DNA of 64,000 nt from an uncultured Candidatus Saccharibacteria bacterium (GTDB taxonomy: Bacteria; Patescibacteriota; Minisyncoccia; RBG-13-40-8-A). The stretch is from NCBI GenBank assembly GCA_965231075.1, contig OZ246412.1, forward strand, positions 463,282 through 527,281, written 5' to 3'. Within the stretch, counting starts at the first letter, position 1, and the number at the start of each line of letters is the position of its first letter. Under the pieces are notes generated by a model, which ran no database searches, was not told the DNA's origin, and worked only from the letters and a program-made list of their open reading frames with translations. Shown here one piece after another: positions 246-49,588 of the stretch. The position numbers and the translations under genes are program-made.

Positions 246-1568
246 TTATTCCGTTAGCAATGTCAGCGTTTTGTCTTTATAAACAATTCTCGATCTTAAG
301 TTTCCGAGCAACTCTCTTTTCTCTGATACCGATCCCTCTTTTAAAATATACTTTGCGTAATTTCGTATATCCATATCTTCTCTATTTTTGACCTTATCCG
401 TGCTACCCAATACCGATCTTTGAAATATATTGAATCTTGCAATTTCATCTTCTAATTTTTGTCGCATTCCAAGTTCATTGATATTTACCCTATCCAATAT
501 CTTCAATAACTCGGCAATTAATTCTTCTTCACGAATATATTTGTTCTTACAGTTGCGATCTACACCTCGACTACAACCATAATAAATATAATGAGCTAAG
601 GTGCCATTTTTGAGCGGTTTCCATTTTTCCTCGGCTGATATGCCGGACCCGCAATAACCACACGTAAATAGCTTTGTAAAAGCGAATTCTTTGTTTTCTC
701 TAACTATCTGATCTCGTTTTAATTGCACCTTGGCTTTTTCAAACAAATCTTGAGTGATAATTGGTTCATGTTTGCCGGTATACCAATTTCCGCTTTCTTT
801 GGGATGTTCAAAAACTCCATAATAGAATGGATTATCTAATATACGATAAACTCCACTGAGCGTAAGAGGTTTATTGCCTCTTGTATAAAAATTCAATTCA
901 AATTTAAGCCAGTTATATATCTTTCTACCCGAATAATGTTCAAACGCTACTTTTTCAAACATCTTTTTAATAATCGGTGCTCGCAATGGGTCAATGATGA
1001 TCTGACACTTCTTATCCATATGTTTTTGATTCAAATATCCAAGTGGTGCCATTCCTGGCCACAATCCCATTTCTACTCTTGTTCTTAATCCTCGCTTTAC
1101 ATTAATACCCCTGTTGTCATTTTCTAATTTCGCCTGAGATCCCAAAATCATCAGCAAGAATTTCTCATTTGGATTATTACCAAATCTTTGTCCAAATGTT
1201 CGTATGTCTAAGAGGGCACCCGAATCCATTAAATCTACAATTTTTCCTAAATCGCCAGCATTCCTTGAAATACGATCCGGCGCCCAAGTGAGAATACCAT
1301 TAAATTTACCCTGTTTTAATTCTTCAATAATCTCATTGAAGACTGGCCGTTGTCCAGTTTCTTTAGCTGAGTGCGATTCTCGCTTCATTGTTACTACTTC
1401 TAAATTCTCTCTTTCAGCCAATTGAAGCATCTCTTTGATTTGGCTATCGATAGAAAGGACTTGTCGTTCCTCTGATTCTGTTGATTTCCTCGCGTAAAGA
1501 CAATATTTAATTTTCGTTGGAACTATTGTTTTGCCCGTAGTCCCCATGGGCATTTGCGCTGTATTCAT
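246..1568 (-). CDS. large serine recombinase (resolvase/invertase catalytic domain + recombinase domain + zinc ribbon)
   Basis: N-terminal YARKSTESEERQ..SIDSQ serine-recombinase catalytic motif; C-terminal CGYCGSG...YYGCS zinc-ribbon; 440 aa typical of phage/ICE large serine integrases. Confidence 0.85.
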   Translation of the reverse strand: MNTAQMPMGTTGKTIVPTKIKYCLYARKSTESEERQVLSIDSQIKEMLQLAERENLEVVTMKRESHSAKETGQRPVFNEIIEELKQGKFNGILTWAPDRISRNAGDLGKIVDLMDSGALLDIRTFGQRFGNNPNEKFLLMILGSQAKLENDNRGINVKRGLRTRVEMGLWPGMAPLGYLNQKHMDKKCQIIIDPLRAPIIKKMFEKVAFEHYSGRKIYNWLKFELNFYTRGNKPLTLSGVYRILDNPFYYGVFEHPKESGNWYTGKHEPIITQDLFEKAKVQLKRDQIVRENKEFAFTKLFTCGYCGSGISAEEKWKPLKNGTLAHYIYYGCSRGVDRNCKNKYIREEELIAELLKILDRVNINELGMRQKLEDEIARFNIFQRSVLGSTDKVKNREDMDIRNYAKYILKEGSVSEKRELLGNLRSRIVYKDKTLTLLTE

Positions 1569-1662
1569 ATACTTAATGAATGACGCAACCTATTTCGAGA
1601 GTCAAGAGCGTCCCATGTAGGCAAACTGTCGATAAATTATCTTGTGGTATTGTCCATTATTA

Positions 1663-2988
1663 CTACATCATCGGATTATCGTAAGGGTCAAAACGTTCCT
1701 CTTCTTCCTCTTCTGTGTCGTAATCATAAAAACCTGAATCATTATTTATTTTGCTCTCAATTATAGAGGCGTAACGATGAACATCGGCAGCATGAGATGT
1801 CCAATTATGATACGGAACTTCTCTAAACATATTTTTCTTATCATCCCATTCTCGTTTATATTCCGAAATGGCATTAATCCACAACGCACAATTGTTTTCA
1901 TCAACCATTAACATATTAAACGCGAATTTACCCATCTGAATGCCTTCATCAACTCCAAGTCTAGAATCAATAACGCTAAAGGATATACCAAGATCTTTAG
2001 CATAATCAATTCTCGTTTTTCCTGTACTTGTTTCTCTGGTGTTGATATCATGAGGCGCAAAATGTTTTCCGTAATTATATTCTTTTTGTTTTACTGCCAA
2101 CACGGCCTGATCGATCCCATCATTCTCGGTCCCTTGCCAATAATCAATCATATGCAACATTGCTCCGACGCGTTGATAAAATCCGATTGCCATAGCTGGA
2201 CCCACGCCTATATCCCACACAGTATGCACTTTAAATTCTTTTCTCCAAGGAACCATGCCTATACGATTATCGTTTCTTAACATCGCCAGTTCTTCTGCAT
2301 AGACCGCACCCTTAGTCGAAGCATTAAATGAGCAATAAAGCTCTTGCATAAATTCCTCGTGCGACATTGTTCTTCTGGAATTTTCTATCTCTTTCTGGCT
2401 AATGGTTCCTGTATCATCTGCCGTAAGATGGCAAGTAAACCATTCGCTATCATTCTTGTGAGTCTCATATAATAGATAGAATTCATTTCTGCCCTTTGGC
2501 GTTCCAATCCAAATACCATATCCTCCGTTATCAATAAGCGTTGGCCGAATTACTTCAGTAAAGATATTACTCGGCTGCATGCCGTATTCATCGAATACGA
2601 CCCCGCTCAAACCAATTCCTCTTAATCGATCAGGGTTTTCTGCGCCATACAATGTTATTTTTGACCCGCCAGGAAATTCTACTGATAATTCTGATTCTTT
2701 ACATTTTACTCCTGGAAATCTCGTATATCTTTTCAAAATACTCCATCCGGCGCTTTTGGCCATCTTATAGGTTGGAGCAATATACGCATAGTTAGTGCCA
2801 GGATTTTTTATTGCACTAAATATAAGATAATTTAGGGCTGCAGTTGTTTTGCCCGCACGTCGATGCACAACAAGCACCATCCAACGTTTATCGGTCTCAT
2901 GAAATGGGATTGCCCAATTTCGTGGCCGATATAGACTTAAAGATTTTTTGTCCATAAGTTTAATGTTTCTGGTTATGATTAAACTCAA
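1663..2988 (-). CDS. phage terminase large subunit-like ATPase/nuclease
   Basis: Walker A HRRAGKTTAA, Walker B hhhFDEYG (VVFDEYGM), size 441 aa, immediately downstream of a small HTH gene. Confidence 0.7.
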   Translation of the reverse strand: MSLIITRNIKLMDKKSLSLYRPRNWAIPFHETDKRWMVLVVHRRAGKTTAALNYLIFSAIKNPGTNYAYIAPTYKMAKSAGWSILKRYTRFPGVKCKESELSVEFPGGSKITLYGAENPDRLRGIGLSGVVFDEYGMQPSNIFTEVIRPTLIDNGGYGIWIGTPKGRNEFYLLYETHKNDSEWFTCHLTADDTGTISQKEIENSRRTMSHEEFMQELYCSFNASTKGAVYAEELAMLRNDNRIGMVPWRKEFKVHTVWDIGVGPAMAIGFYQRVGAMLHMIDYWQGTENDGIDQAVLAVKQKEYNYGKHFAPHDINTRETSTGKTRIDYAKDLGISFSVIDSRLGVDEGIQMGKFAFNMLMVDENNCALWINAISEYKREWDDKKNMFREVPYHNWTSHAADVHRYASIIESKINNDSGFYDYDTEEEEEERFDPYDNPMM

Positions 2989-3328
2989 CGTCTAGTGGCG
3001 TACTTATTTCGACCTTTGTTTTGTTATACTTCGGATGACACTTATTAAGACGATAAAGAACCGCCGGCCAGTATTTTTCTTTTATTAACAACAACAACTG
3101 ATGTTCGCTCATGTCGTTAATAAATTCATCGCCCTCAGCCATGGCATCTTCAACGGCCTTAGCAAATTCCGGATCTTCATTCCGCCACCGATAATAAGTG
3201 GCTTTTCCGACTCCAGCTTTCTCGCACGCCAACAACTGAATTGGGTATTTTCTCAGTTGCTCAAGTAAAATTTCTTTTTCTTTTACTTGTCTTGCTTTAA
3301 TTGTTTTTCGTTTTTTAGCGTTGTTCAT
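2960..3328 (-). CDS. small basic HTH protein, possible terminase small subunit
   Basis: 122 aa, basic N-terminus, HTH-like segment KATYYRWRNEDPEFAKAV; overlaps the start of the terminase-large-like gene (translational coupling). Confidence 0.35.
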   Translation of the reverse strand: MNNAKKRKTIKARQVKEKEILLEQLRKYPIQLLACEKAGVGKATYYRWRNEDPEFAKAVEDAMAEGDEFINDMSEHQLLLLIKEKYWPAVLYRLNKCHPKYNKTKVEISTPLDVEFNHNQKH

Positions 3329-4650
3329 ACAATTTTTTTGGCTTTTTGGCCAGTTAATTTTTCCCAGCGATATTTAATTACTTCTGTATATACTGGCGAC
3401 TTCTCCATTACATAACAACGTCGTTTCATTTTTTCGGCTGCAATTAAGGTGCTTCCCGACCCACCAAACGGTTCAACGATTAAATCATCGCGTTTGGTTA
3501 AGACTTTAATATATGGAATCAAAATCTCAATTGGCTTCGTGCCAAATACAACTCCTTGTCCGGAGTGTTTAGCATCTTCGGCGCGAAACTCGACGAAATC
3601 GCTTGGACAATATTTTTTTCCACCTTGATATTTTTCCCATTGCGGTTTGCCACTCGTTGCGTAGAGTGCTGTCTCGTATTCGTTTTGTAATAACTCTTCT
3701 TCCGGTTCAATGTTAAGTTGCTTATTTTTGGAACTTCCGACTAACGCAAAATCATATTTGTTGAAGAATTTGTATTTTGCCGAGAATCCCTGAGAACGAT
3801 TAGGCAAATGCCAAATGATCATATTCCGCACACGCCATCGTTTTTCAATTTCTGTCCAAATATGCGGAGCATTCTTCCAATACTCAAACACAATAATGCT
3901 GAAATCTTCTTTTGCAACAGTTTTTATATTCGTCATCCACTGTTCGGTAAAATTATCTGGCAATTCATCTGTTTCAAGATACCGACGATCACGTTTGTAA
4001 CCGAATCCTTTTTTTGTATTACCACGTCGCTTAATGCCCTGGAGGTATGCGAGCAAATAAGGAGGATCAGTGAACGACATATCTGCCTTTTCCCTATTCA
4101 TGAGCTTCAAGATATCTTTTTTAACAGTAGAATCTCCACACATTAAGCGGTGTGGTCCGAGCTGATACACATCGCCTTTCTTTACTTTAATCTTTTTGAT
4201 ATCCAGTTTGGCAAGTTCTTTTTCTAAATCAAACTCTTCTGCTACATCTTCGACCGCAAATATGTTGTCCAATTCTTCTGACGCAAATCCGATATCTGCC
4301 AAAAACGATTCCTTAAAATTAGTTAGCATGTCCCAGTCAAATTCTCCGGTATTTTTATTTAGTCGGATATTTAATTCTTTTTCTCTTTCAATGTCGGCAA
4401 TGTTTAAATACACAACCGGGATTTCTTTAAATTTTAATTCTTTAGCCGCCCGCAATCTCATGTGACCACCAATTACAACATTTTTTCTATTTGAAGCAAT
4501 GTTTACAATTATTGGATCAACTATTTGGAACCGCTTTATGCTTTTCTTCAGCTGTTCCATTGATTCTTTACTAATTTTTCGAGGATTATATTCGGATGGC
4601 TTAAGTTCGTTTATTGGAACATAAACGATATTTAGTTTATTATTTTGCAT
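3325..4650 (-). CDS. ParB-like nuclease domain fused to beta-class N6A/N4C DNA methyltransferase
   Basis: N-terminal ParB/Srx fold motif (NPRKISKESMEQLKKSIKRFQIVDPIIV...GGHMRLRAAKEL); C-terminal methyltransferase motif IV TDPPY followed by motif I EPFGGSGST. Confidence 0.8.
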   Translation of the reverse strand: MQNNKLNIVYVPINELKPSEYNPRKISKESMEQLKKSIKRFQIVDPIIVNIASNRKNVVIGGHMRLRAAKELKFKEIPVVYLNIADIEREKELNIRLNKNTGEFDWDMLTNFKESFLADIGFASEELDNIFAVEDVAEEFDLEKELAKLDIKKIKVKKGDVYQLGPHRLMCGDSTVKKDILKLMNREKADMSFTDPPYLLAYLQGIKRRGNTKKGFGYKRDRRYLETDELPDNFTEQWMTNIKTVAKEDFSIIVFEYWKNAPHIWTEIEKRWRVRNMIIWHLPNRSQGFSAKYKFFNKYDFALVGSSKNKQLNIEPEEELLQNEYETALYATSGKPQWEKYQGGKKYCPSDFVEFRAEDAKHSGQGVVFGTKPIEILIPYIKVLTKRDDLIVEPFGGSGSTLIAAEKMKRRCYVMEKSPVYTEVIKYRWEKLTGQKAKKIV

Positions 4651-5364
4651 GTTTTTTGGCGATTATTAATTTTTATTTTTTTATGCTGATTAATATCGAC
4701 CGTGGCCTTCAGGAGCACACATTGATCAGTAGAACGCAAAACGAGGAACGCACAAATGCGTTCCTCGTATGATTAAAATGGAAAAATCCAGAAGTTAAAC
4801 CACAAAGATACGCATTGCAACGCAATGTTTTAATGATTTAACTTCCGGATTTTTACGAGCGATCTTCACTCAAGAATGTTGGGTCACTTCTGTTGTTCTG
4901 ATCTGATTTTGTGAGCACATTCACTCACAAAGCAATAAATACTGAACTATGCGACAGAAGGTTGAATAAACCTCGAAAAGTTTTTGGATCTATTTTATTT
5001 TTAATGCTCTATTTTAATGTTAGCAAATTTTATTAAAATGTCAAGTCCAACATTATGCCTAACAGCCCATAATGAGTCAACCTGTTGGTAACTCGACTTC
5101 GCAAAGCCATTAAAATGAGATAACATGGGATTGATGTAGAAATCGATTTAAGTTATAATTCAATTAACAATTAAATAGCTTATAAGCAGATCTAAACCAT
5201 TTAGAGAAATCTGATGGCATGATCCAAAAACGTTCAACACAGAAAGCTCTTAGTCAGAGCACGTGTTGAACGTCATATCAGGAAACTGATATGGGTCCCG
5301 CAAGGGATCGCTGGCTAGGAGCTTTGTGTTTCTCGCCAATAATAATTAAAATCTATACAAAAAC

Positions 5365-5844
5365 ATGGGAAAATTAACAAATAAACTTAATCTCAAAATA
5401 CCAACATTTCTAAGGTGGATATTGTTTATTCCCGTTACTTTAATAATTTATAAAATTATTACCTTCGTAGTTTATCTCGGGGTTACTTTTTTGTTTCATT
5501 TTCTGGGCACACTGCATTGGTATCTCTTAATAATAATTCTGTTTCCTGCCGTTATCCTGCTAATAATTATTGCTGGTGGTATATGGGCTTGTTTCTATCT
5601 GGGGCTATCTCTCAGTCCTAATAAATTATTGTGCTGGCTACTCTCTGCGTGGCTTATATTCTCAGCGATTTCAACTATTCATGGATACTACTCACCAATC
5701 CCGCAGCAAGGTATTGATATTTCAATGCCCTGTTGGGCATATGTGATATTGCAAGCATATATTATTATCAGCTTAATAATGGCTGCCATTGTTAGTGGAA
5801 AAAATATTTCAAATAGAGAAGATAATAAAAATCAGGTAAAATAA
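5365..5844 (+). CDS. hypothetical polytopic membrane protein
   Basis: 159 aa, 4-5 hydrophobic helices, no recognisable motif. Confidence 0.4.
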   Translation: MGKLTNKLNLKIPTFLRWILFIPVTLIIYKIITFVVYLGVTFLFHFLGTLHWYLLIIILFPAVILLIIIAGGIWACFYLGLSLSPNKLLCWLLSAWLIFSAISTIHGYYSPIPQQGIDISMPCWAYVILQAYIIISLIMAAIVSGKNISNREDNKNQVK

Positions 5845-5848
5845 ATCT

Positions 5849-6247
5849 ATGAAGCTTTATTTTGACATTGATGGAGTTCTTATCGCACAAGGACGGAAAC
5901 CGGCTAACTATGTAGCCGAGTTTCTTAAAATAGCAACAGAGAAGCATAATTGCTATTGGCTTACAACTCATTGCAAGGATAGCTCCGAAGCTTCAATTGC
6001 GATGGATCACATTAAAGACGTCTTGCCAGCAGAAGCTATTTCTTATTGTGAACGAATTAAACCCACAGAATGGTCTCTAAAAAAAACCGAAGCAATTGAT
6101 CTTGATTCTGATTTTCTTTGGTTTGACGATGTTTCGTTTGATTTTGAAAAAGAAGTTCTATCGCAACACAATAAATCCAGCAATTTTGTGCTGGTTGATT
6201 TGATAAATAACCCCGATCAATTAAAAGAGTTAATTAAGTTATTATAG
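5849..6247 (+). CDS. hypothetical protein with HAD-like motif I (FDIDGVL)
   Basis: 132 aa; N-terminal DxDGV motif typical of HAD phosphatases, too short for a full HAD fold. Confidence 0.35.
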   Translation: MKLYFDIDGVLIAQGRKPANYVAEFLKIATEKHNCYWLTTHCKDSSEASIAMDHIKDVLPAEAISYCERIKPTEWSLKKTEAIDLDSDFLWFDDVSFDFEKEVLSQHNKSSNFVLVDLINNPDQLKELIKLL

Positions 6248-6262
6248 ATTTATAAATACTTA

Positions 6263-6291
6263 TTGACAGCAGATTTTATTTAAAATAATGT
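6263..6291 (+). promoter_or_regulatory. sigma70-like promoter (TTGACA-17-TAATGT) upstream of ORF 6493
   Basis: ttgacagcagattttatttaaaataatgt read directly; followed by a GC-rich ~110 nt leader. Confidence 0.4.
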
Positions 6292-6492
6292 AGATACATA
6301 CAATTGAATACGTTAATTATCAAGAGTGTGGCGAGAGCACTGGCTCAATGACCCACCGGCAACCCTTTAAGGCGACTCCTCAAGGAAGGTGCCAATTCCA
6401 GCTCCAAAAGGAGAAAGATAAAAGGTCGATTTTTTATTACTCTTTCTTTGTGGAAAGAGTTTTTTAATTATTAAATTAGTAAAAATAAAAAT

Positions 6493-6906
6493 ATGGAAAG
6501 TTTTGAAGAACAATTGAAACAAGGAATTCTTTATGGATTTATTCCCAAAGAGTTACAAATAGAGGGGCGTCCGGAATTAAACGTTTTTCCATTTAACGTT
6601 CTTTTTATGCGATTTAAACAAGAAGACGGGAAAACAATTTCCGGAAGCGCAGTATATGATCCAGATTTAAATTCGTTACAACAAGGCGCAGATAAATGGT
6701 CTATGCGTTACAATAACGCTTATGGTGGCGATAGTTGGCTTATAGTCGAATATGATATTGTGAGCAGGGGTTATCATGGTAAAAAATTCGTGAATGGTAA
6801 GTGCGTCGGAATAACAGATGGCCTAGAATGGAAAGGATTTTTTATACATCTCACCATATTGGGCCTATCCAATGGTGAACAATGCAGATTTGAGACTGTC
6901 GATTAA
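6493..6906 (+). CDS. hypothetical protein
   Basis: 137 aa ORF with AT-rich genome-typical codon usage; no motif recognised. Confidence 0.4.
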   Translation: MESFEEQLKQGILYGFIPKELQIEGRPELNVFPFNVLFMRFKQEDGKTISGSAVYDPDLNSLQQGADKWSMRYNNAYGGDSWLIVEYDIVSRGYHGKKFVNGKCVGITDGLEWKGFFIHLTILGLSNGEQCRFETVD

Positions 6907-7657
6907 ATTTCTCCAAAATCCAATTCAGGGACTGGAAAAAAGAGAAGAAAAGAGATATGATGAAGATGTAATGAAATCTATAAAAAACAATAGATTTATA
7001 ATTAAATCCAAGCAGAGAATCAAGGACCATGGAGAAGTATTTACTCCTGATTTTATTGTGCAAGAAATGCTTGATTTGGTAAAAAATGAAACTGAAAGGA
7101 TTGAATCCCGATTTTTGGAACCAGCTTGTGGCGATGGAAATTTTTTAGCTCCGATACTTGAGAGAAAACTTGAAGTGGTAAAGAGCAAATATAAATCAAG
7201 CCAAGTTGAATTTGAACGGAATGCTCTTTTGGCAGTGAGTAGTATTTATGGCGTTGAATTGTTGCAAGACAACGTTGTAGCGTGTATTGAGCGACTTTAT
7301 AAAATTGTTGATGAAGTATATTCAAAATTATACAAAGAAAAGTGCAGTATTGATTTTAGAAAAAGCATTCGATTTGTATTAAACAGGAATATCTTGCAAG
7401 GCAACGCGCTTGATCTAAAAACTTCTGATGGCAAAGAGCATATAGTTTTCTCCGAATGGTCACCTGCAAATGGCAGTTCAATTAAGAGAAGAGATTTTAG
7501 ATTTTTGGCTCTATCTAATTTTTATAAACCAGGCACATTGCCACTTGATTCAGTAAAAGAACTTTCAGATACCGGCGAAACCGTATTTTCCCCAATGCCG
7601 ATAAAAGAATTTCCGTTGAAACACTATCTTAAACTTGATTATGAAGATGCAAAATAA
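6872..7657 (+). CDS. N6-adenine methyltransferase-like protein lacking the catalytic NPPY/DPPY motif (methyltransferase paralog / possible partner subunit)
   Basis: motif X FTP ([13 protein letters not shown]) and motif [11 protein letters not shown] present, no motif IV anywhere in 261 aa; overlaps downstream methyltransferase gene start. Confidence 0.5.
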
Positions 7658-9137
7658 TTACAATCCGGACGTATTGTCGTGTTTAGCAAATCTTAGTAGT
7701 GATGAAGTTTTCACACCACCAAAATTAGCGAACGAAATATTAGATTTGCTTCCTCAAAAAATTTGGAAAGATAAAAACGCAACTTTTTTGGATCCGGTTT
7801 GTAAGTCGGGAGTATTCCTTCGCGAAATTGCAAGAAGATTGTTAGAGGGACTTAAAGAAGAAATCCCAGATATACAAAAACGCGTTGATCATATTTATAG
7901 GAATCAGCTTTTTGGAATAGGCATTACTGGATTGACCTCACTACTTTCTAGGCGCAGCTTGTATTGTTCAAAATCCGCTAATGGAAAATACTCTGTATCT
8001 AACACTTTTAATAATGAACAAGGTAATATTTCTTTCGAAAAGACGGAGCATGATTGGAAAAACGGAAGATGCTCTTTTTGTGGAGCTAGCCAATCAGAGT
8101 ATCAGCGTGAGAAGGGGCTCGAAACTCACGCTTATCAATTTATACATAATAAAAAACCTAATATAATAAACAATATGAAATTTGATGTAATTATAGGCAA
8201 CCCGCCTTATCAACTCGCGACAGGAGGAGCACAAGCACAAGCGACTCCCTTATATGATAAATTTGTTTTGCAGGCGAAGAAATTAAACCCACGCTTTTTA
8301 ACAATGATCATACCATCAAGATGGTTTTCAGGCGGGATGGGATTAAATGAATTTAGGGCAGAGATGTTAAAAGATACCAGAATAAGAAAATTGATTGATT
8401 ACCCAATATCATCAGAATGTTTTCCTGGTGTCGAGATTAAGGGGGGTGTATGCTATTTCCTTTGGGATAGGGAGAATAAAGGATTGTGTGAAGTTACTTC
8501 TATTAGAGGTGACAGAAAAACCATTTCTCAGAGACCCTTGTTGGAAGAGGGTCAAGACATTTTTATTAGATTTAATGAGGCATTGTCAATTTTATCTAAA
8601 GTAAAAAAACTTAAGGAAAAGTCTTTCTCCGATATCGTAAGTCCACAAAAACCTTTTGGTTTCCCAACAAATTTTAGAGGAAAAACTAAGCCATTCAAAA
8701 ACGCAGTTAAAATTTATGTCACAAAAGAAATAAATTACGTAAATAGAGAAGATATTTCTACTAATCTTGATTGGATTAATCAATATAAAATATTAATTAC
8801 CAAGGGTTATGGTGCTGGCGAAGATTACCCCCATCAGATAATTAATAAACCAATTCTAGCTGAACCAGGAAGTTGTTGTTCTGAGACTTATATTGTCTTG
8901 GGAACATTTTCAAATAAAACACAAGCTCAAAATGCAATATCCTATATAGAGACAAAATTCTTCCGATTTTTGGTGATGTTACAAAAAAACACTCAGGACG
9001 CATTGAGACGTGTTTATACTCTTGTCCCAATACAAGATTTTTCTGAATCATGGACTGACGAAAAGTTATATAAAAAATACAAATTAACAAAAGAAGAAAT
9101 TGAGTTTATTGAATCTATGATTCGTCCGATGAAATAA
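7635..9137 (+). CDS. gamma-class N6-adenine DNA methyltransferase (Eco57I/TaqI-like arrangement) with C-terminal target-recognition region
   Basis: motif X VFTPP, motif [12 protein letters not shown], motif [10 protein letters not shown] in canonical gamma order; ~300 aa C-terminal extension. Confidence 0.8.
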
Positions 9138-9138
9138 T

Positions 9139-11670
9139 ATGAGTAAAGATTTCTTTCCGCAAAAACCTGAAATTAGACCCACTATTTACGCCTATGAACT
9201 TATAGGCGTTGATTCACATAAGGGCCTGTTTAAGGTTGGCTACACTGTTCGTAATGCACAAGACAGAGTCGCCGAGCAATTAAAAACTAGCCGGCTTAAA
9301 TATAAAATTGTTCTCGAAGAATTCGCTGTTAGAAACGACGGAACTGCCTTTACAGATCATGAAGTCCATCATTATTTGAAACGTCGTAGCATTAAGAAAG
9401 AAGACGGAGAATGGTTTAAATGCACCGTAAAAGATATCAAGTCGGCTATCAATGATATAAGGAATCGAAAATTTAGTGTTGAAACGCGGGGATCAAATTT
9501 TAAAATGCGTCCAGAACAGAAGGCGGCGGTAGAAAAAACAGCAGATTATTTTGCGAGTTATAAAAAAGAAAATCCCAGTAAAACACCGCATTTTTTATGG
9601 AATGCAAAAATGCGTTTTGGTAAAACTTTTGCAACCTATCAATTGGCGAAAAAGATGGAGTGGACAAAGATTTTGGTAATGACTTTTAAGCCAGCAGTAG
9701 AAAGTGCTTGGGATGACGATTTAAAGGAACATGTTGATTTTCGAAATTGGCAATTTGTTTCAGCATCAGAGGACACGCTTTGGCATAAAGATATTAATCC
9801 CAAAAAACCGTTCGTGTGCTTCGGTTCATTTCAAGATTATTTAGGAAAAAATAAAAGCACAGGCGGTGTCAAAACAAAAAATAAGTGGGTACATAAAACT
9901 AAATGGGATTGTATTGTATTTGATGAATATCATTATGGTGCGTGGCGAGAAAATGCCAAAGAACTTTTTGAAGCAGAAGATAAAAAAGAAAAAGAATTTG
10001 CCGAGGGTCAAGGACTGGAATATTTAGACGAAAAAACATTGCCCATTGAAACGGAGGCATATTTATACCTTTCGGGGACTCCGTTTAGAGCAATAGCATC
10101 TGGCGAATTTATCGAGGAACAGATTTATAACTGGACATACTCGGACGAACAAAAAGCTAAAAATTCTTGGAATGACAAAGAAGGTTCTAATCCGTATGCC
10201 CCTCTTCCGCGCATGGTAATGATGACCTATCAACTACCGGATTCAATTCGAGATATAGCAATGCAGGGCGAATTCAATGAATTTGATTTGAACTTGTTTT
10301 TCTCTGCGGAGGGCAAGGGCAGGAATGCAAAATTTGCTTATGAGGACGAAGTTCAAAAATGGCTCGATTTGATTCGGGGTTCATTTTTAGAAACAACGAT
10401 TGACAACTTAAAGCTTGGCGCAAAAAAGCCTCCAATGCCCTTTTCTCATGCGGAACTTTTGAGTGTATTAAATCACACACTTTGGTTTTTGCCATCAGTT
10501 GCTTCGTGTCAGGCAATGTATAATTTACTAAAGAAAAAACAAAATACTTTTTATCATGATTATGAAATCATTGTGGCAGCAGGTCAGAAAGCGGGTATCG
10601 GGTTAAAAGCACTTCCGCCAGTTTTGGAAGCCATGGAAGATCCGCTGGAATCAAAAACTATTACTTTAACTTGTGGAAAGCTTTTGACTGGCGTAACCGT
10701 AAGGCCGTGGACAGGTATTTTCATGCTTCGCAATTGTTCAACTCCGGAAACATATTTTCAAGCCGCTTTCCGTGTTCAGTCTCCGTGGATCGTCAAAAAC
10801 CCGGATAACAAATCTCCGAATAAAGAAGAAATTATCAAGCAAGAGTGTTATGTCTTTGATTTTGCGCCCAATAGAGCATTGAGACAAATTGCTGAATATA
10901 GCTGTCGTCTTAACGTAAACGAATCTAATCCAGAGGCAAAAGTGGCTGAGTTTATAAGTTTTCTTCCGGTGCTTGCATATGATGGGAGTGCCATGAAACA
11001 AATCGATGCAGCGGGAATTTTAGACATGGCAATGAGTGGTACTACAGCAACACTTCTTGCGCGACGATGGGAAAGCGCCCTACTTGTAAATGTCGACAAC
11101 AATACATTAAACAGATTAATGAATGACAAAGCAGCAATGGACGCGCTCATGAGCATTGAAGGGTTTAGAAATTTGAATCAAGACATTGAGACGATTATTA
11201 ACAAATCCGAGTCTGTTGAAAAGATAAAAAGGGAGACGAACGACAAAGAGTTATCCAAAAAAGAGAAGAGAGAGCTTACCGAGGAAGAAAAAGAATACAA
11301 GAGTCTCCGCAAGCGGGTGCAGGATAAGCTTATTAAGTTTGCTACTCGCATACCCGTCTTTATGTATCTTACAGATTATCGCGAAAGAACATTAAAAGAT
11401 GTGATTACAAAACTAGAGCCTGGATTATTTAAAAAAGTTACCGGATTAACTCAAAAAGATTTCGAATTACTTGTAAGTCTCGGGGTATTCAATAGTGCAC
11501 TGATGAACGATGCGGTTTATAAGTTTAAGCGATATGAAGACGCGAGTCTTGTTTATACTGGAATAAATAAACACGAAGGTGAAAAAATAGGTCTTTATGA
11601 TACTGTGATCTCACAAGGAGAACATCGAAACGAGTCCGAAAAAATACTTATAAATAATCCGGCTGAATAA
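9139..11670 (+). CDS. T5orf172/GIY-YIG-like domain fused to SF2 (ResIII/DEAH-type) helicase; Res-like subunit
   Basis: N-terminal YAYELIGVDSHKGLFKVGYT...R motif of T5orf172/GIY-YIG superfamily; Walker A AKMRFGKT, motif II VFDEYHYGA, motif III LSGTPF, motif VI QAAFRVQS; start codon 1 nt after methyltransferase stop. Confidence 0.75.
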   Translation: MSKDFFPQKPEIRPTIYAYELIGVDSHKGLFKVGYTVRNAQDRVAEQLKTSRLKYKIVLEEFAVRNDGTAFTDHEVHHYLKRRSIKKEDGEWFKCTVKDIKSAINDIRNRKFSVETRGSNFKMRPEQKAAVEKTADYFASYKKENPSKTPHFLWNAKMRFGKTFATYQLAKKMEWTKILVMTFKPAVESAWDDDLKEHVDFRNWQFVSASEDTLWHKDINPKKPFVCFGSFQDYLGKNKSTGGVKTKNKWVHKTKWDCIVFDEYHYGAWRENAKELFEAEDKKEKEFAEGQGLEYLDEKTLPIETEAYLYLSGTPFRAIASGEFIEEQIYNWTYSDEQKAKNSWNDKEGSNPYAPLPRMVMMTYQLPDSIRDIAMQGEFNEFDLNLFFSAEGKGRNAKFAYEDEVQKWLDLIRGSFLETTIDNLKLGAKKPPMPFSHAELLSVLNHTLWFLPSVASCQAMYNLLKKKQNTFYHDYEIIVAAGQKAGIGLKALPPVLEAMEDPLESKTITLTCGKLLTGVTVRPWTGIFMLRNCSTPETYFQAAFRVQSPWIVKNPDNKSPNKEEIIKQECYVFDFAPNRALRQIAEYSCRLNVNESNPEAKVAEFISFLPVLAYDGSAMKQIDAAGILDMAMSGTTATLLARRWESALLVNVDNNTLNRLMNDKAAMDALMSIEGFRNLNQDIETIINKSESVEKIKRETNDKELSKKEKRELTEEEKEYKSLRKRVQDKLIKFATRIPVFMYLTDYRERTLKDVITKLEPGLFKKVTGLTQKDFELLVSLGVFNSALMNDAVYKFKRYEDASLVYTGINKHEGEKIGLYDTVISQGEHRNESEKILINNPAE

Positions 11671-11719: not shown

Positions 11720-12133
11720 ATGGAAAAGAAAATAACTGAAGACTTTGTTAAACATTCAATTATTAAGTGGTTATCGGCAAATAACTGGGGACATTTTCAG
11801 TTTGGCGGTTTGCACGAGCGAGGCGTTGATATTAGGGCGAAACACAATCAATATCCAATTTATTATTTTATAGAAACAAAAGGTCAAGGGAAAATTAGGC
11901 AGGCCGATGAAGTAGCATTTGTGTATTCATTAGGACAAATTATTACCAGAATGAAAACAAATAATACGAGAAATAAACATGCCTTAGGGTTGCCAGATAC
12001 AAGTGCAAAAATCGCCATCCGGCGTATTCCTTGGCAAATCGCTAAAAAGCTTTTGCTTTATGTGCTTTCCGTAGATCGCACCGGAAAAGTTAAACAATAT
12101 TCTTGGCAGGATTTAAAGAAAGTTCAGAAATAA
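11720..12133 (+). CDS. hypothetical small protein, possible PD-(D/E)xK fold
   Basis: 137 aa; GVDIRAK...YYFIETKG resembles D...ExK nuclease core; weak. Confidence 0.3.
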   Translation: MEKKITEDFVKHSIIKWLSANNWGHFQFGGLHERGVDIRAKHNQYPIYYFIETKGQGKIRQADEVAFVYSLGQIITRMKTNNTRNKHALGLPDTSAKIAIRRIPWQIAKKLLLYVLSVDRTGKVKQYSWQDLKKVQK

Positions 12134-13578: not shown

Positions 13579-14109
13579 ATGGATCAACTTAGTGGATTAT
13601 TTGGAAAATTGTTATTGTATTTGGGGCCAATTTTTATTGTGGCCTTAATAATTAAATATTTATTGCCAGAATTAATTAAGGCATTCAAGATAAGGAAGAA
13701 ATTTAAAGCTGGGCAAAAATGGAGTTCAGAAAAAGATTTAATTTATTGGTTGCGAGGAATGAAACCGTGGGAGTTTGAGGAATACATTTCTGGACTATTT
13801 TCAAAATTAGGTTATAAAATAGAAAAAGTCGGTGGAGGATATGATAAAGGAGTCGATGTTATTGCAGAGAAAAATGGAATTAAACACTATATCCAATGCA
13901 AGAAATACATAACTTCTGAAGTTGGAGTTGGCGAGGTTAGAGATTTTTATGGCGCAATTGCCGATCATTTGGCCCAAGGCAAGGGTTATTTCATAACCAC
14001 GAACAAATTCACCTTAGAAGCAGAAAAATTCGCTGAAAGCAAGCCAATCGAACTAATTGATTCTTATGGACTACTAAAGTATATTAAATTGGCAGAAGAT
14101 AAAAAATAA
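13579..14109 (+). CDS. membrane-anchored Mrr-like restriction endonuclease (Mrr_cat domain)
   Basis: N-terminal TM helix then YDKGVDVIAEK...IQCKKY (PD-(D/E)xK of Mrr family), GAIADHLAQGKGYFITT typical downstream segment. Confidence 0.65.
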   Translation: MDQLSGLFGKLLLYLGPIFIVALIIKYLLPELIKAFKIRKKFKAGQKWSSEKDLIYWLRGMKPWEFEEYISGLFSKLGYKIEKVGGGYDKGVDVIAEKNGIKHYIQCKKYITSEVGVGEVRDFYGAIADHLAQGKGYFITTNKFTLEAEKFAESKPIELIDSYGLLKYIKLAEDKK

Positions 14110-14111
14110 AA

Positions 14112-14798
14112 ATGCAAAAATTAGATAGAACGAAATATATTAGTGGAAAAAATCTCGGTGAATTGGCATTACAAAAATTTTGTCCAAGGTGTTTTTGGTT
14201 AAAAAGACACATTGGAGATACGCCGGGCGGTTTTCCTGGCATATTCTCCACTATCGATAGTTTAACCAAAAGAAGCACAAAGAGATCTTTTGATTCTAAA
14301 AATATTCCTCCACTTTGGTTAAAAATAAATGGTCTCAAAAAGGTTTTATCTGTTCCCAAGATAAAAGTTGATATGAGTGAGCATGGCGGATGGATTTTAA
14401 CTGGTGCCATTGATGATGCCTTTTTGAGAGATGACGGGACAGTGCATATCGTAGACTATAAGACCGCAAAGCATACAAAGACACAAGACGAATTACGACC
14501 AGAATACGATGTTCAATTAAATGCCTATGCACTTGCTTTACAAAAAATGGGGATTGGAAAGGTATCTCGTTTGTCTTTGATCTATTGCGAACCTAGTGAA
14601 AATTTAGATTCTGATAGTGATTTTAAATTATCTTTTAGTACACATATTGAAGATGTTGAAATAAACCCCGACCTTGTTCCCAAACTTCTGATTAAGGCAA
14701 GAAATATTTTAAATGCCGATATTCCCAATTCTATTGAAAAATGTACTGGTATTTGTTCGTGGATAGAAAAATACGACGTCAAAATGAGTAATTTATAA
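14112..14798 (+). CDS. Cas4/RecB-like PD-(D/E)xK nuclease with Cys cluster
   Basis: N-terminal CPRC, core GAIDDAF...VHIVDYKTAKH, C-terminal CTGICSW; architecture of Cas4/Dna2-type Fe-S nucleases; no CRISPR array nearby. Confidence 0.6.
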   Translation: MQKLDRTKYISGKNLGELALQKFCPRCFWLKRHIGDTPGGFPGIFSTIDSLTKRSTKRSFDSKNIPPLWLKINGLKKVLSVPKIKVDMSEHGGWILTGAIDDAFLRDDGTVHIVDYKTAKHTKTQDELRPEYDVQLNAYALALQKMGIGKVSRLSLIYCEPSENLDSDSDFKLSFSTHIEDVEINPDLVPKLLIKARNILNADIPNSIEKCTGICSWIEKYDVKMSNL

Positions 14799-45570: not shown

Positions 45571-45654
45571 GCGCGGGTGCTGTAATTGGTAGCCAGGCTA
45601 GCCTAAGGAGCTAGTGGGAATTATCCCGTGGAGGTTCGAGTCCTCTCCCGCGCA
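45571..45654 (+). tRNA. tRNA-Leu, type II; anticodon loop ctaagga reads AAG by my fold (unusual)
   Basis: acceptor gcgcggg/cccgcgc, anticodon stem ctagc/gctag, long variable arm, T-arm ggagg ttcgagt cctct. Confidence 0.75.
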
Positions 45655-45730
45655 TCAGATTAGATCCGACACGTCCGGTAATCAATTGTTAAATAAAAAA
45701 TTACGACTTTACGGGTCGTAATTTTTTTGT

Positions 45731-45805
45731 TGGAGCGGAAGACGGGATTCGCACCCGCGACCTTCTCCTTGGCAAGGAGACGTTCTGCTGCTGAACTACT
45801 TCCGC
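45731..45805 (-). tRNA. tRNA-Gly (anticodon GCC), CCA encoded
   Basis: minus strand gcggaag...cttccgc t cca; anticodon stem tctcc/ggaga loop ttgccaa; T-loop tgcgaat noncanonical. Confidence 0.8.
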
Positions 45806-45809
45806 AAGA

Positions 45810-45881
45810 TGCCGAGGGAGAGAATCGGACTCTCGACACCACGATTTTCAGTCGTGTGCTCTACCACTGAGCTACCCCGGC
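45810..45881 (-). tRNA. tRNA-Phe (anticodon GAA)
   Basis: minus strand gccgggg ta gctc agtggta gagc; anticodon stem cacga/tcgtg loop ctgaaaa; T-loop tccgatt. Confidence 0.8.
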
Positions 45882-45914
45882 GTAATTTTATATTTATGAT
45901 ATCTTATCGTTATT

Positions 45915-46481
45915 TTATTGTAAAGGTTGAAGTACAATTTGTGACTCACCATTAATGCATTGATCAGCATCAAATCCTTGGTTTATCATTAACTGTTCTG
46001 CATAAATTGGAATCGTGTTTCCATTAGATAAGTTGCCCTGCACTCCAACATAAATTCCGGGAGGAATCGTGCATCCGTATCTAGTTGCTCCTAATGGCCA
46101 ATAATTATAATCGTACTCTCCTCCCCAAGGGGTAGTATCTGGCCAATTATTTGTATACGGTCCAGACCAATTTTGATTTATAATTGTTGTCCAGTTTGAC
46201 GGACAATGATCGCATGGGACAATATAGCTTTCGCCTGTAACATAATCATATGGCAATGAATGAGCTAGTCCAGGATCCCACCCCCTACTCACATCAGGAG
46301 GATAAAATCCCATATCGTTATAATAAAATTCTACCGCCAGTGCAAGATTTTTTGCTGTGCTCCCCGCCCCCACAACCCTTCCTTTTTCTTTAGCATTATT
46401 CATGCTCACTAAAACGATAGTTGCCAACAAACCAATAATTGCGATTACAACTAGAAGTTCTATCAATGTAAAGCTTTTCAT
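45915..46481 (-). CDS. type IV pilin / pseudopilin (prepilin N-terminal methylation motif)
   Basis: MKSFTLIELLVVIAIIGLLATIV class III signal peptide. Confidence 0.75.
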   Translation of the reverse strand: MKSFTLIELLVVIAIIGLLATIVLVSMNNAKEKGRVVGAGSTAKNLALAVEFYYNDMGFYPPDVSRGWDPGLAHSLPYDYVTGESYIVPCDHCPSNWTTIINQNWSGPYTNNWPDTTPWGGEYDYNYWPLGATRYGCTIPPGIYVGVQGNLSNGNTIPIYAEQLMINQGFDADQCINGESQIVLQPLQ

Positions 46482-46497
46482 TTTTTAAATATTTTAG

Positions 46498-46569
46498 AGG
46501 CCAGGATGGGAATCGAACCCATGTATAAGAGTTTTGCAGACTCATGCCTTACCACTTGGCGACCTGGCC
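46498..46569 (-). tRNA. tRNA-Cys (anticodon GCA)
   Basis: minus strand ggccagg...cctggcc; anticodon loop ctgcaaa; T-arm atggg ttcgatt cccat. Confidence 0.75.
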
Positions 46570-46575
46570 AATATG

Positions 46576-46647
46576 TGGGCGATGTAGGAGTCGAACCTAC
46601 CGTATTCTGCGTGTAGAGCAGACGTTTTACCGATAAACTAATCGCCC
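46576..46647 (-). tRNA. tRNA-Val (anticodon TAC)
   Basis: minus strand gggcgat ta gttt atcggta aaac; anticodon stem tctgc/gcaga loop tctacac; T-arm gtagg ttcgact cctac. Confidence 0.75.
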
Positions 46648-46706
46648 CTGCTGAGCCCCGCCTTCGCTAAAGCTACGGCGGGCAAGTAAACGCCCCAACA
46701 ACCATG

Positions 46707-46789
46707 TGCCGGGGGCGGGACTCGAACCCGCACGGTCGTGAGACCACAAGATTTTAAGTCTTGCGTGGCTGCCATTACACCACCCCGGC
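46707..46789 (-). tRNA. tRNA-Leu (anticodon TAA), type II
   Basis: minus strand gccgggg...ccccggc; anticodon stem caaga/tcttg loop cttaaaa; T-arm gcggg ttcgagt cccgc. Confidence 0.9.
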
Positions 46790-49246: not shown

Positions 49247-49334
49247 ATTTTTTACGTTCGGACCTGTCCATCTTTGGCGGAGAGTGGAGGATTTTCCGCC
49301 CAAGGCGGACCAGCCTCGGGCTGGGAACTACATT

Positions 49335-49421
49335 CGGAGAGGGTGAGATTCGAACTCACGATACCTTTTCAGATATACCGCTTTTCGAGAGCGGCCCATT
49401 CAACCACTCTGGCACCTCTCC
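49335..49421 (-). tRNA. tRNA-Ser (anticodon CGA), type II
   Basis: minus strand ggagagg...cctctcc g; anticodon stem ccgct/agcgg loop ctcgaaa; T-arm gtgag ttcgaat ctcac. Confidence 0.85.
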
Positions 49422-49431
49422 ATTATTGCGG

Positions 49432-49502
49432 TGGACCCAGGGGGAGTCGCACCCCCGACTCATCCATGCCATGGATGTGTTTTACTGCTGAACTATGGGC
49501 CC
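49432..49502 (-). tRNA. tRNA-Ala (anticodon GGC)
   Basis: minus strand gggccca...tgggtcc; anticodon stem catcc/ggatg loop atggcat; T-arm ggggg tgcgact ccccc. Confidence 0.7.
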
Positions 49503-49516
49503 AAAAAACTCTCGAT

Positions 49517-49588
49517 TGCCCCGACGAGGAATTGGACCCCGATCTCTCCCTTAGGACGGGATTGCTCTATCCGTTGAGCTATCAGGGC
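49517..49588 (-). tRNA. tRNA-Arg (anticodon CCT)
   Basis: minus strand gccctga ta gctc aacggata gagc; anticodon loop gtcctaa; T-loop tccaatt noncanonical. Confidence 0.7.

Follow-up and report, generated by a model that had tools for sequence, protein, structure and literature searches.

Gene organization of the locus

Three tightly packed plus-strand genes in the window (the whole stretch of 64,000 nucleotides analysed here) raise the question of whether two methyltransferase-like proteins and a nuclease-helicase form a restriction-modification (R-M) system outside the textbook classes, as an earlier note on this DNA had claimed, or belong to a family that already has a name. The open reading frames (ORFs) and the regions deduced within them were as follows.

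6872-7657, plus strand: protein A (M1-like), longest ORF, 261 aa, ATG start
6971-7657, plus strand: M1-like subunit (protein A from its probable start), methyltransferase-like, motifs X and I present
7635-9137, plus strand: protein B (M2-like), ORF of 500 aa, TTG start
7635-8504, plus strand: M2-like subunit, catalytic part (aa 1-290), predicted Eco57I-family gamma-class N6-adenine methyltransferase
8505-9137, plus strand: M2-like subunit, C-terminal part, putative target-recognition domain (TRD, aa 291-465) followed by a tail (aa 466-500)
9139-11670, plus strand: protein C (R), ORF of 843 aa, ATG start
9139-9462, plus strand: R subunit, N-terminal T5orf172/MUG113 domain (GIY-YIG superfamily), by Pfam
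9463-10818, plus strand: R subunit, SF2 ATPase/translocase core (ResIII, SNF2-like), motifs I, II (DEYH), III and VI
10819-11670, plus strand: R subunit, C-terminal region, mostly helical and very conserved (mean pairwise identity 86%)

The packing described in the earlier note was recovered throughout. The A and B frames overlap by 23 nt when the TTG is taken as the start of B (17 nt from the ATG at 7641, 11 nt from the ATG at 7647), and 1 nt lies between B, whose TAA stop ends at 9137, and the ATG of C at 9139. Because the homologues of A are 219-224 aa long and their conservation starts at about residue 44 of A, the true start of A is probably Met34 (window position 6971) rather than 6872, and with this start A would not overlap the upstream ORF at 6493-6906.

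Methyltransferase-like subunits M1 and M2

Protein A carries motif X (GEVFTP) and a 12-residue motif I, and FSEW stands at the position of NPPY. It therefore keeps the SAM-binding motifs without the catalytic NPPY, in agreement with its earlier description as a degenerate methyltransferase paralogue. The Pfam matches of A to MmeI_Mtase and N6_Mtase were both sub-threshold, and its nearest folds were HsdM and the methyltransferase domain of LlaBIII. That A is a pseudogene or a fragment of B was rejected, as it is a separate protein of 219-224 aa with invariant motifs of its own. By homology, A (M1) is a conserved methyltransferase-like partner from its own gene, lacking the catalytic NPPY.

Based on Pfam, protein B matched Eco57I (1e-35), while its MmeI_Mtase match (0.0018) fell below the cut-off. 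Its catalytic motifs, a 14-residue stretch and NPPY, were invariant among 68 homologues, and a Cys/His cluster (C111, H139, C146 and C149) was also conserved. The mean pairwise identity was 37% in aa 291-465 versus 68% in the methyltransferase part, and in 13 pairs the methyltransferase part was >80% identical with a TRD of <45% identity; the tail (aa 466-500) was better conserved than the TRD. The Eco57I match and the hypervariable C-terminal region bear out the proposal of a gamma-class N6-adenine methyltransferase whose TRD lies in its own C-terminal part. By homology, B (M2) is predicted to be an active m6A methyltransferase whose short asymmetric site is read by its own variable TRD.

The R subunit

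The Pfam search that the earlier note had suggested returned, besides Eco57I on B, MUG113 (6.7e-9) and T5orf172 (4.4e-8) at aa 24-107 of C and ResIII at aa 121-280, with no match to a PD-(D/E)xK family in C and no matching family for its C-terminal region. The motor motifs GKT (K162/T163), DEYH (262-265), SGTP (312-315) and QxxFR (541-545) were invariant among homologues. The architecture first read from the translation, an SF2/ResIII helicase with an N-terminal T5orf172/GIY-YIG module and without PD-(D/E)xK, thus stands. In the N-terminal domain, Y17 and K32 were invariant and G34, T36, R43 and E91 at least 90% conserved in representatives sharing 30-60% identity with the window protein. No NCBIfam model was found for C, and in PHROGs its N-terminal domain matched families of unknown function only.

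An AlphaFold2 model of C, built from an alignment of 43 low-diversity sequences, reached a mean pLDDT of 52.6; its N-terminal domain was modelled at a pLDDT of ∼83 with a beta-beta-alpha-beta-alpha layout. Because the model as a whole is poor, a Foldseek search with it indicated only an SF2/SNF2-like motor. Weak profile and fold affinities linked the motor to RapA, SNF2-type motors, XPB, HsdR and SauUSI; sequence searches of the PDB with B and C gave nothing useful, and a search with a diverse C profile gave weak matches only, to RapA, XPB and HsdR. By homology, C (R) joins a predicted GIY-YIG/T5orf172 nuclease and an ATP-dependent SF2 dsDNA translocase in one chain, the nuclease activity being suggested by the conserved GIY-YIG residues.

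Relation to DrdVI

BLASTP aligned all three proteins over their full lengths with those of DrdVI, from plasmid pDrdVI of Deinococcus wulumuqiensis NEB 479: A with M1.DrdVI at 42% identity (E 2e-51), B with M2.DrdVI at 51% (E 0) and C with DrdVI at 56% (E 0). The gene order and strand are identical, and both loci share an NPPY-less M1, an Eco57I-type M2 with TRD and a GIY-YIG-translocase R. The trio is thus orthologous gene for gene to a system already named in REBASE, an outcome that the earlier note itself had listed as refuting, and the claim of a non-textbook R-M class did not hold. The two loci differ in setting, as DrdVI lies on a small plasmid whereas the window trio is chromosomal in a low-GC host, probably a member of the Patescibacteria (CPR). 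They also differ in the TRD of B (aa 291-465), which has diverged from that of DrdVI, so that the recognition sequence is probably different.

M1-2.DrdVI produces m6A at GCAGCC and is classed as Type IIG in REBASE (PMC6430315), and the REBASE curators described DrdVI as 'a fused translocase and REase' with a GIY-YIG domain (PMC4996451). A further member of the family is MaeIV of Methanococcus aeolicus, where the M1/M2.MaeIV 'split methylase/RM', which is similar to DrdVI, has the motif GCACY (PMC10113651). A literature search on T5orf172 together with Eco57I found nothing. When PADLOC was run, as had been proposed in the earlier note, its REBASE-derived Type IIG model PDLC03626 covered both R and M2, spanning aa 115-760 of C and then B.

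Conservation of the gene trio

Scoring covered more than 8000 C homologues, and in a collection of species-representative genomes at least 543 stretches contained relatives. The identity of C was 70-92% across more than 15 phyla. Co-occurrence, which the earlier note had asked to be checked, was counted in the 49 related loci, from many phyla, that had enough upstream DNA; the trio stood in the same order and on the same strand in 47, and the association is therefore more than chance. In 12 of these 47 loci, M2 and R were separated by inserted Bro-N, DUF1016/YhcG and RhuM genes; such hitchhikers are also found within Type I R-M operons (PMC9881135).

Single chains of T5orf172, ResIII and Eco57I (1200-1460 aa) also exist, and such fusions indicate that the parts work together. 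An A-like protein is kept even beside fused enzymes; in Enterococcus faecium, the M1-like gene remains upstream of the fused enzyme. In the fused relatives, the C-terminal region of C stands between motor and methyltransferase, and this placement makes it a candidate coupler to M2.

Comparison with other R-M systems

In its action, the trio probably resembles a Type ISP enzyme that has been split and in which a GIY-YIG nuclease replaces the Mrr nuclease. In the Type ISP enzymes LlaGI and LlaBIII, an Mrr-like PD-(D/E)xK nuclease, motor, methyltransferase and TRD form one polypeptide, whereas the trio has a nuclease of the GIY-YIG/T5orf172 type, divides these activities between B and C, puts the methyltransferase gene first and has an additional M1 subunit. 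Membership in Type ISP was rejected on the N-terminal domain and the split activities; the PDB searches brought up neither LlaBIII nor LlaGI as a sequence-level match to C.

With Type III systems (EcoP15I Mod/Res), the trio shares a methyltransferase gene preceding a ResIII-type ATPase-nuclease gene, asymmetric sites and one-strand methylation. Type III has a beta-class Mod (N6_N4_Mtase) and a Res with a C-terminal PD-(D/E)xK domain, neither of which was found in the trio, and this assignment was rejected, as B is of the Eco57I/N6_Mtase gamma class and C has no PD-(D/E)xK match. Type I systems comprise a separate HsdS with two TRDs and an HsdR with a PD-(D/E)xK nuclease; no HsdS-like ORF was found, the only variable TRD is part of B, and C gave no PD-(D/E)xK match, so Type I was rejected as well.

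Combinations of GIY-YIG, translocase and gamma-class methyltransferase were already described in 2009 (PMC2731913) and 2016 (PMC4752239), and a translocating R-M role was proposed in both papers for the DnmA(YeeA)-YeeB-YeeC type. This type, to which OspHL35III belongs, likewise combines three activities, those of a gamma-class methyltransferase that carries its own TRD, of an SF2 helicase and of a GIY-YIG nuclease, but its helicase and nuclease are two proteins, its methyltransferase is long and of the MmeI family, and M1 is absent. Since C unites nuclease and helicase, B is of the Eco57I family and M1 is present, the trio was not assigned to it. In Vibrio crassostreae, homologues of DnmA-YeeB-YeeC influence the sensitivity to phages (cited in PMC9973331).

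Proposed mechanism and alternative readings

The trio is very probably an intact member of the DrdVI family, a 'Type IIG-like' R-M system with a split methylase. M1, M2 and R would form one complex with a single TRD; an unmethylated site would switch on the motor so that DNA is pulled in, and the GIY-YIG domain, with its single active site, would cut away from the recognition site. Since GCAGCC and GCACY, the known family sites, offer only one strand for methylation, a single unmodified site must not kill after replication. We infer that the cut would probably be completed on collision of two converging enzymes, as in Type ISP and Type III, and that M1 would be a non-catalytic SAM-binding partner, probably replacing a second HsdM-like protomer. 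Tentatively, and with more doubt than confidence, the DrdVI family as a whole may be regarded as a mechanistically distinct ATP-dependent restriction class: a split 'Type ISP-like' machine with a single-site GIY-YIG nickase on an SNF2-like dsDNA translocase and an obligatory, catalytically dead, SAM-binding M1 that is paired with an active M2 and licenses methylation or motor activation.

Decay of the system was weighed against this reading. The three window ORFs are full length relative to their homologues, every catalytic motif is intact, and the identity of C across phyla points to very strong purifying selection, which makes it very unlikely that the trio is an R-M relic in which M2 (with M1) persists as an orphan epigenetic methyltransferase and R no longer restricts. 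Such a fate has been proposed for the analogous DnmA-YeeB-YeeC cluster of Bacillus subtilis, which showed no defence phenotype (PMC9973331); fragmented DrdVI-like genes are reported from Bibersteinia (PMC4996451), and some of the related loci are disrupted (among them L001, with a B match of just 363 aa, L027 and L055). Least probable of the readings considered is a BREX-like, non-cleaving exclusion guided by methylation, in which T5orf172 would bind DNA and the motor would block replication of unmethylated DNA. The original description of T5orf172, cited in PMC9973331, was of a DNA-binding domain; in BREX, a related gamma-class methyltransferase modifies one strand and no cleavage takes place (PMC4752239, PMC12707154); and in the literature searched, methylation specificity only, and no cleavage or phage-restriction activity, was found for any DrdVI-family member. 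However, Y17, Y35, R43, H77 and E91 are conserved even in the representatives of 30-60% identity, the curators' description of DrdVI names an REase, and no further BREX components were found by Pfam or PADLOC.

The surroundings of the trio suggested a different function, that of phage-derived mobile-element cargo serving mainly as an addiction or superinfection-exclusion module and not in host defence. Just upstream, the opposite strand encodes a serine recombinase, a large terminase subunit and a ParB-methyltransferase, homologues are also carried by plasmids and turn up in a few phage records, and AbiE toxin-antitoxin genes adjoin other loci. The small neighbouring ORFs had no family match in Pfam or PHROGs, and the ORF at 11720-12133 had no PDB match. 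This function is unlikely, as related loci are mostly found on chromosomes, next to varied neighbours; at the molecular level it does not compete with a DrdVI-type R-M system, whose biochemistry would be the same.

Implications for the DrdVI family

By itself, the window locus adds no new principle and is a fresh copy of the named DrdVI family. With this assignment, three genes under names as vague as 'hypothetical' and 'GIY-YIG nuclease family protein' can be annotated as an R-M system that has a name, in what is probably a CPR bacterium, and the trio flags an island of defence and mobile genes. Although the DrdVI family is found very widely, knowledge of it comes from methylome papers alone. 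Its R subunit is among the most widespread and best-conserved R-M proteins in this analysis, and the NPPY-less M1 is universally retained in the family.

Gene Organization of the Trio

The three genes of the restriction-modification (R-M) trio were located in the window as follows.

6872-7657, plus strand: gene A (M1-like), ORF of 261 aa
7635-9137, plus strand: gene B (M2-like), ORF of 500 aa with a TTG start, followed two and four codons later by ATGs
9139-11670, plus strand: gene C (R subunit), ORF of 843 aa

An earlier note, made without database searches, had proposed three plus-strand ORFs with tight junctions, which was confirmed on the window sequence: the overlap of A with B measures 23 nt when counted from the TTG start (17 or 11 nt from the alternative ATG starts), and one base lies between the stop of B and the start of C. 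Given that the homologues of A are 219-224 aa long, with conservation starting near residue 44, the true start of A is probably Met34 at 6971. The long version of gene A overlaps a plus-strand ORF of 137 aa (6493-6906), to which no function was assigned; since L013 is the only related locus with a 40%-identical homologue ahead of the trio, this ORF is probably not a core component.

The Trio Belongs to the DrdVI Family

The best plasmid match of C was pDrdVI of Deinococcus wulumuqiensis NEB 479 (56% identity, 98% coverage), which carries, in the same order, genes for a 'DNA methyltransferase' (212 aa), an Eco57I-domain methylase (539 aa) and a DEAD/DEAH protein (851 aa). Full-length identities in pairwise BLASTP were 42% for A, 51% for B and 56% for C. 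By gene order and these identities, the trio is a new member of the named and curated DrdVI family. Fomenkov et al. (2019; PMC6430315) assigned 'M1-2.DrdVI' to pDrdVI (GCAGCC, m6A, Type IIG) and confirmed the assignment by cloning in E. coli. M1.DrdVI and M2.DrdVI have been described together with DrdVI itself, which has a GIY-YIG domain and is called 'a fused translocase and REase' (PMC4996451). A further family member, M1/M2.MaeIV of Methanococcus aeolicus, has the motif GCACY and is described as a 'split methylase/RM' system resembling DrdVI (PMC10113651). The permutation of endonuclease, translocase and methyltransferase around one target-recognition domain (TRD) was presented as a general idea by Blow et al. 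(2016; PMC4752239), and Morgan et al. (2009; PMC2731913) pointed out the combination of GIY-YIG, helicase and gamma-methyltransferase in YeeA/B/C. The functional reading of the trio in the earlier note was thus largely right; the novelty that it saw is refuted, on its own terms, by the match to an already named system.

Conserved Domains and Residues of A, B and C

Pfam searches identified Eco57I in B (1e-35) and MUG113/T5orf172 (aa 24-107) and ResIII (aa 121-280) in C; A gave only sub-threshold matches to MmeI_Mtase and N6_Mtase. The motifs previously read from the proteins were indeed present and conserved among homologues. Residues 1-290 of B form a gamma-class N6-adenine methyltransferase, in which motif X, motif I and NPPY were invariant. 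The stretch from motif I to NPPY contains an inserted, conserved Cys/His cluster (C111, H139, C146 and C149; window 7965-8081), possibly a zinc-binding element. Residues 291-465 of B were hypervariable, with a mean pairwise identity of 37% versus 68% in the catalytic part, and in 13 pairs the catalytic part was more than 80% identical and residues 291-465 less than 45%. Residues 291-465 carry the sequence signature of a specificity-changing TRD.

In the nuclease domain of C, Y17, Y19, K32, G34, R43 and E91 were invariant among close relatives, and T36 and H77 were at least 90% conserved; in representatives 30-60% identical, Y17 and K32 were still invariant and G34, T36, R43 and E91 at least 90% conserved. 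These residues constitute the predicted GIY-YIG catalytic set. The ATPase motifs of C were invariant, and its motor showed weak affinity to SNF2-type dsDNA translocases, RapA, XPB, HsdR and SauUSI. Residues 561-825, the C-terminal third, which received no family assignment, were the most conserved part of C (86% mean pairwise identity).

Co-conservation, Fusions and Insertions

C homologues numbered more than 8000 in the protein collection, and in the species-representative genome set at least 543 stretches contained relatives. Of these, the best 80 were 70-92% identical to C, and their sources included Patescibacteria, Acidobacteriota, Planctomycetota, Bacteroidota, Verrucomicrobiota, Chloroflexota, Nitrospirota and Desulfobacterota, as well as one Woesearchaeota MAG. 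The R homologues of loci L005-L084 (70-92% identity) extended over more than 15 bacterial phyla and the Woesearchaeota MAG. Such conservation and horizontal spread of R are unusually strong and wide for a defence gene. When the window proteins were searched by tblastn, A and B lay upstream of C with order and strand kept in 47 of the 49 loci having at least 4.3 kb upstream of C, which bears out the expected co-occurrence of the three genes in other genomes.

Gene fusions pointed the same way, namely that the trio genes belong together. An exhaustive representative search revealed T5orf172-ResIII-Eco57I, in this domain order, in proteins of 1200-1460 aa made as one chain. One of these, a fused R-M2 enzyme of 1446 aa on conjugative plasmids of Enterococcus faecium, is preceded by a separate M1-like gene (248 aa, 41% identical to A, FSEW motif included); this arrangement occupies 4232-9311 of locus L086 (plasmid NZ_LR135198). 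Similar matches were observed on Lactococcus, Lactiplantibacillus and Pediococcus plasmids. In the REBASE-derived Type IIG model PDLC03626 of PADLOC (1359 positions), C corresponded to positions 150-801 and B to 863-1359. Because the C-terminal region of C sits between motor and methyltransferase in fused proteins, it is a candidate coupler of the two.

Something was present between B and C in 12 of 47 loci; the identifiable extra plus-strand genes encoded Bro-N, DUF1016/YhcG PD-(D/E)xK or RhuM, the same passengers as are known within Type I R-M operons (PMC9881135). Extra plus-strand genes between M2 and R were recorded in L015, L016, L022, L028, L039, L041, L042 and L044, and further in L046, L052, L055, L072, L077, L078 and L082. 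AbiEi/AbiEii pairs were located upstream in L001, L002 and L003 (three loci, two organisms).

Genomic Context

The window is bacterial chromosome of ∼35% GC with 16 tRNA genes, and, to judge by the closest homologues, the host probably belongs to the Patescibacteria. The trio lies within an island; further features of the window are listed below.

246-4650, minus strand: serine recombinase, large terminase subunit (Terminase_6N), small HTH protein and ParB_N-N6_N4 methyltransferase fusion, upstream of the trio
13579-14109, plus strand: stand-alone Mrr_cat restriction endonuclease (Pfam 8.7e-28; PADLOC Type IV mREase, PDC-S02)
14112-14798, plus strand: PDDEXK_1 protein, directly after the Mrr_cat gene
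45571-46789: tRNA cluster, seven of the 16
49334-49588: tRNA cluster, three of the 16

The genes at 246-4650 resemble a module of phage-derived or satellite-like character, which may mark the left edge of the island with the R-M trio. The placement of the trio beside other nucleases was supported by the Mrr_cat and PDDEXK_1 genes, which extend the nuclease-rich island downstream and are followed by housekeeping genes such as xseA. Just 3' of R, a plus-strand ORF of 137 aa (11720-12133) gave no family match; its D...E-x-K-like pattern (GVDIRAK...FIETKG) suggests a small PD-(D/E)xK nuclease, and a 63%-identical homologue lies directly 3' of the R gene in L007 (9702-10127).

Proposed Mechanism

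By homology, M2 (with M1) is predicted to make m6A at a short asymmetric site, and R to carry both a GIY-YIG nuclease and an ATP-driven motor. M1, M2 and R would act in one complex with a single TRD, in which M1 would be a non-catalytic SAM-binding partner that may take the position of a second HsdM-like protomer. Because GCAGCC has an adenine on one strand only, DrdVI-type protection would be of the hemimethylation-like kind known from Type III, Type ISP and MmeI systems. Fully unmodified sites would then be present on the replicated chromosome, so that a safe enzyme would have to depend on a pair of sites. A translocase together with a nuclease of single active site suggests that the mechanism is Type ISP-like, with two converging enzymes that would translocate, collide and nick the DNA. 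A literature search turned up neither cleavage nor phage-defence data for any DrdVI-family member. The analogous cluster of B. subtilis, DnmA-YeeB-YeeC, gave no defence, but defence was seen with Vibrio crassostreae homologues (PMC9973331). Beyond its family assignment, the trio is of interest for how this very common family restricts DNA and for what M1 does in it.
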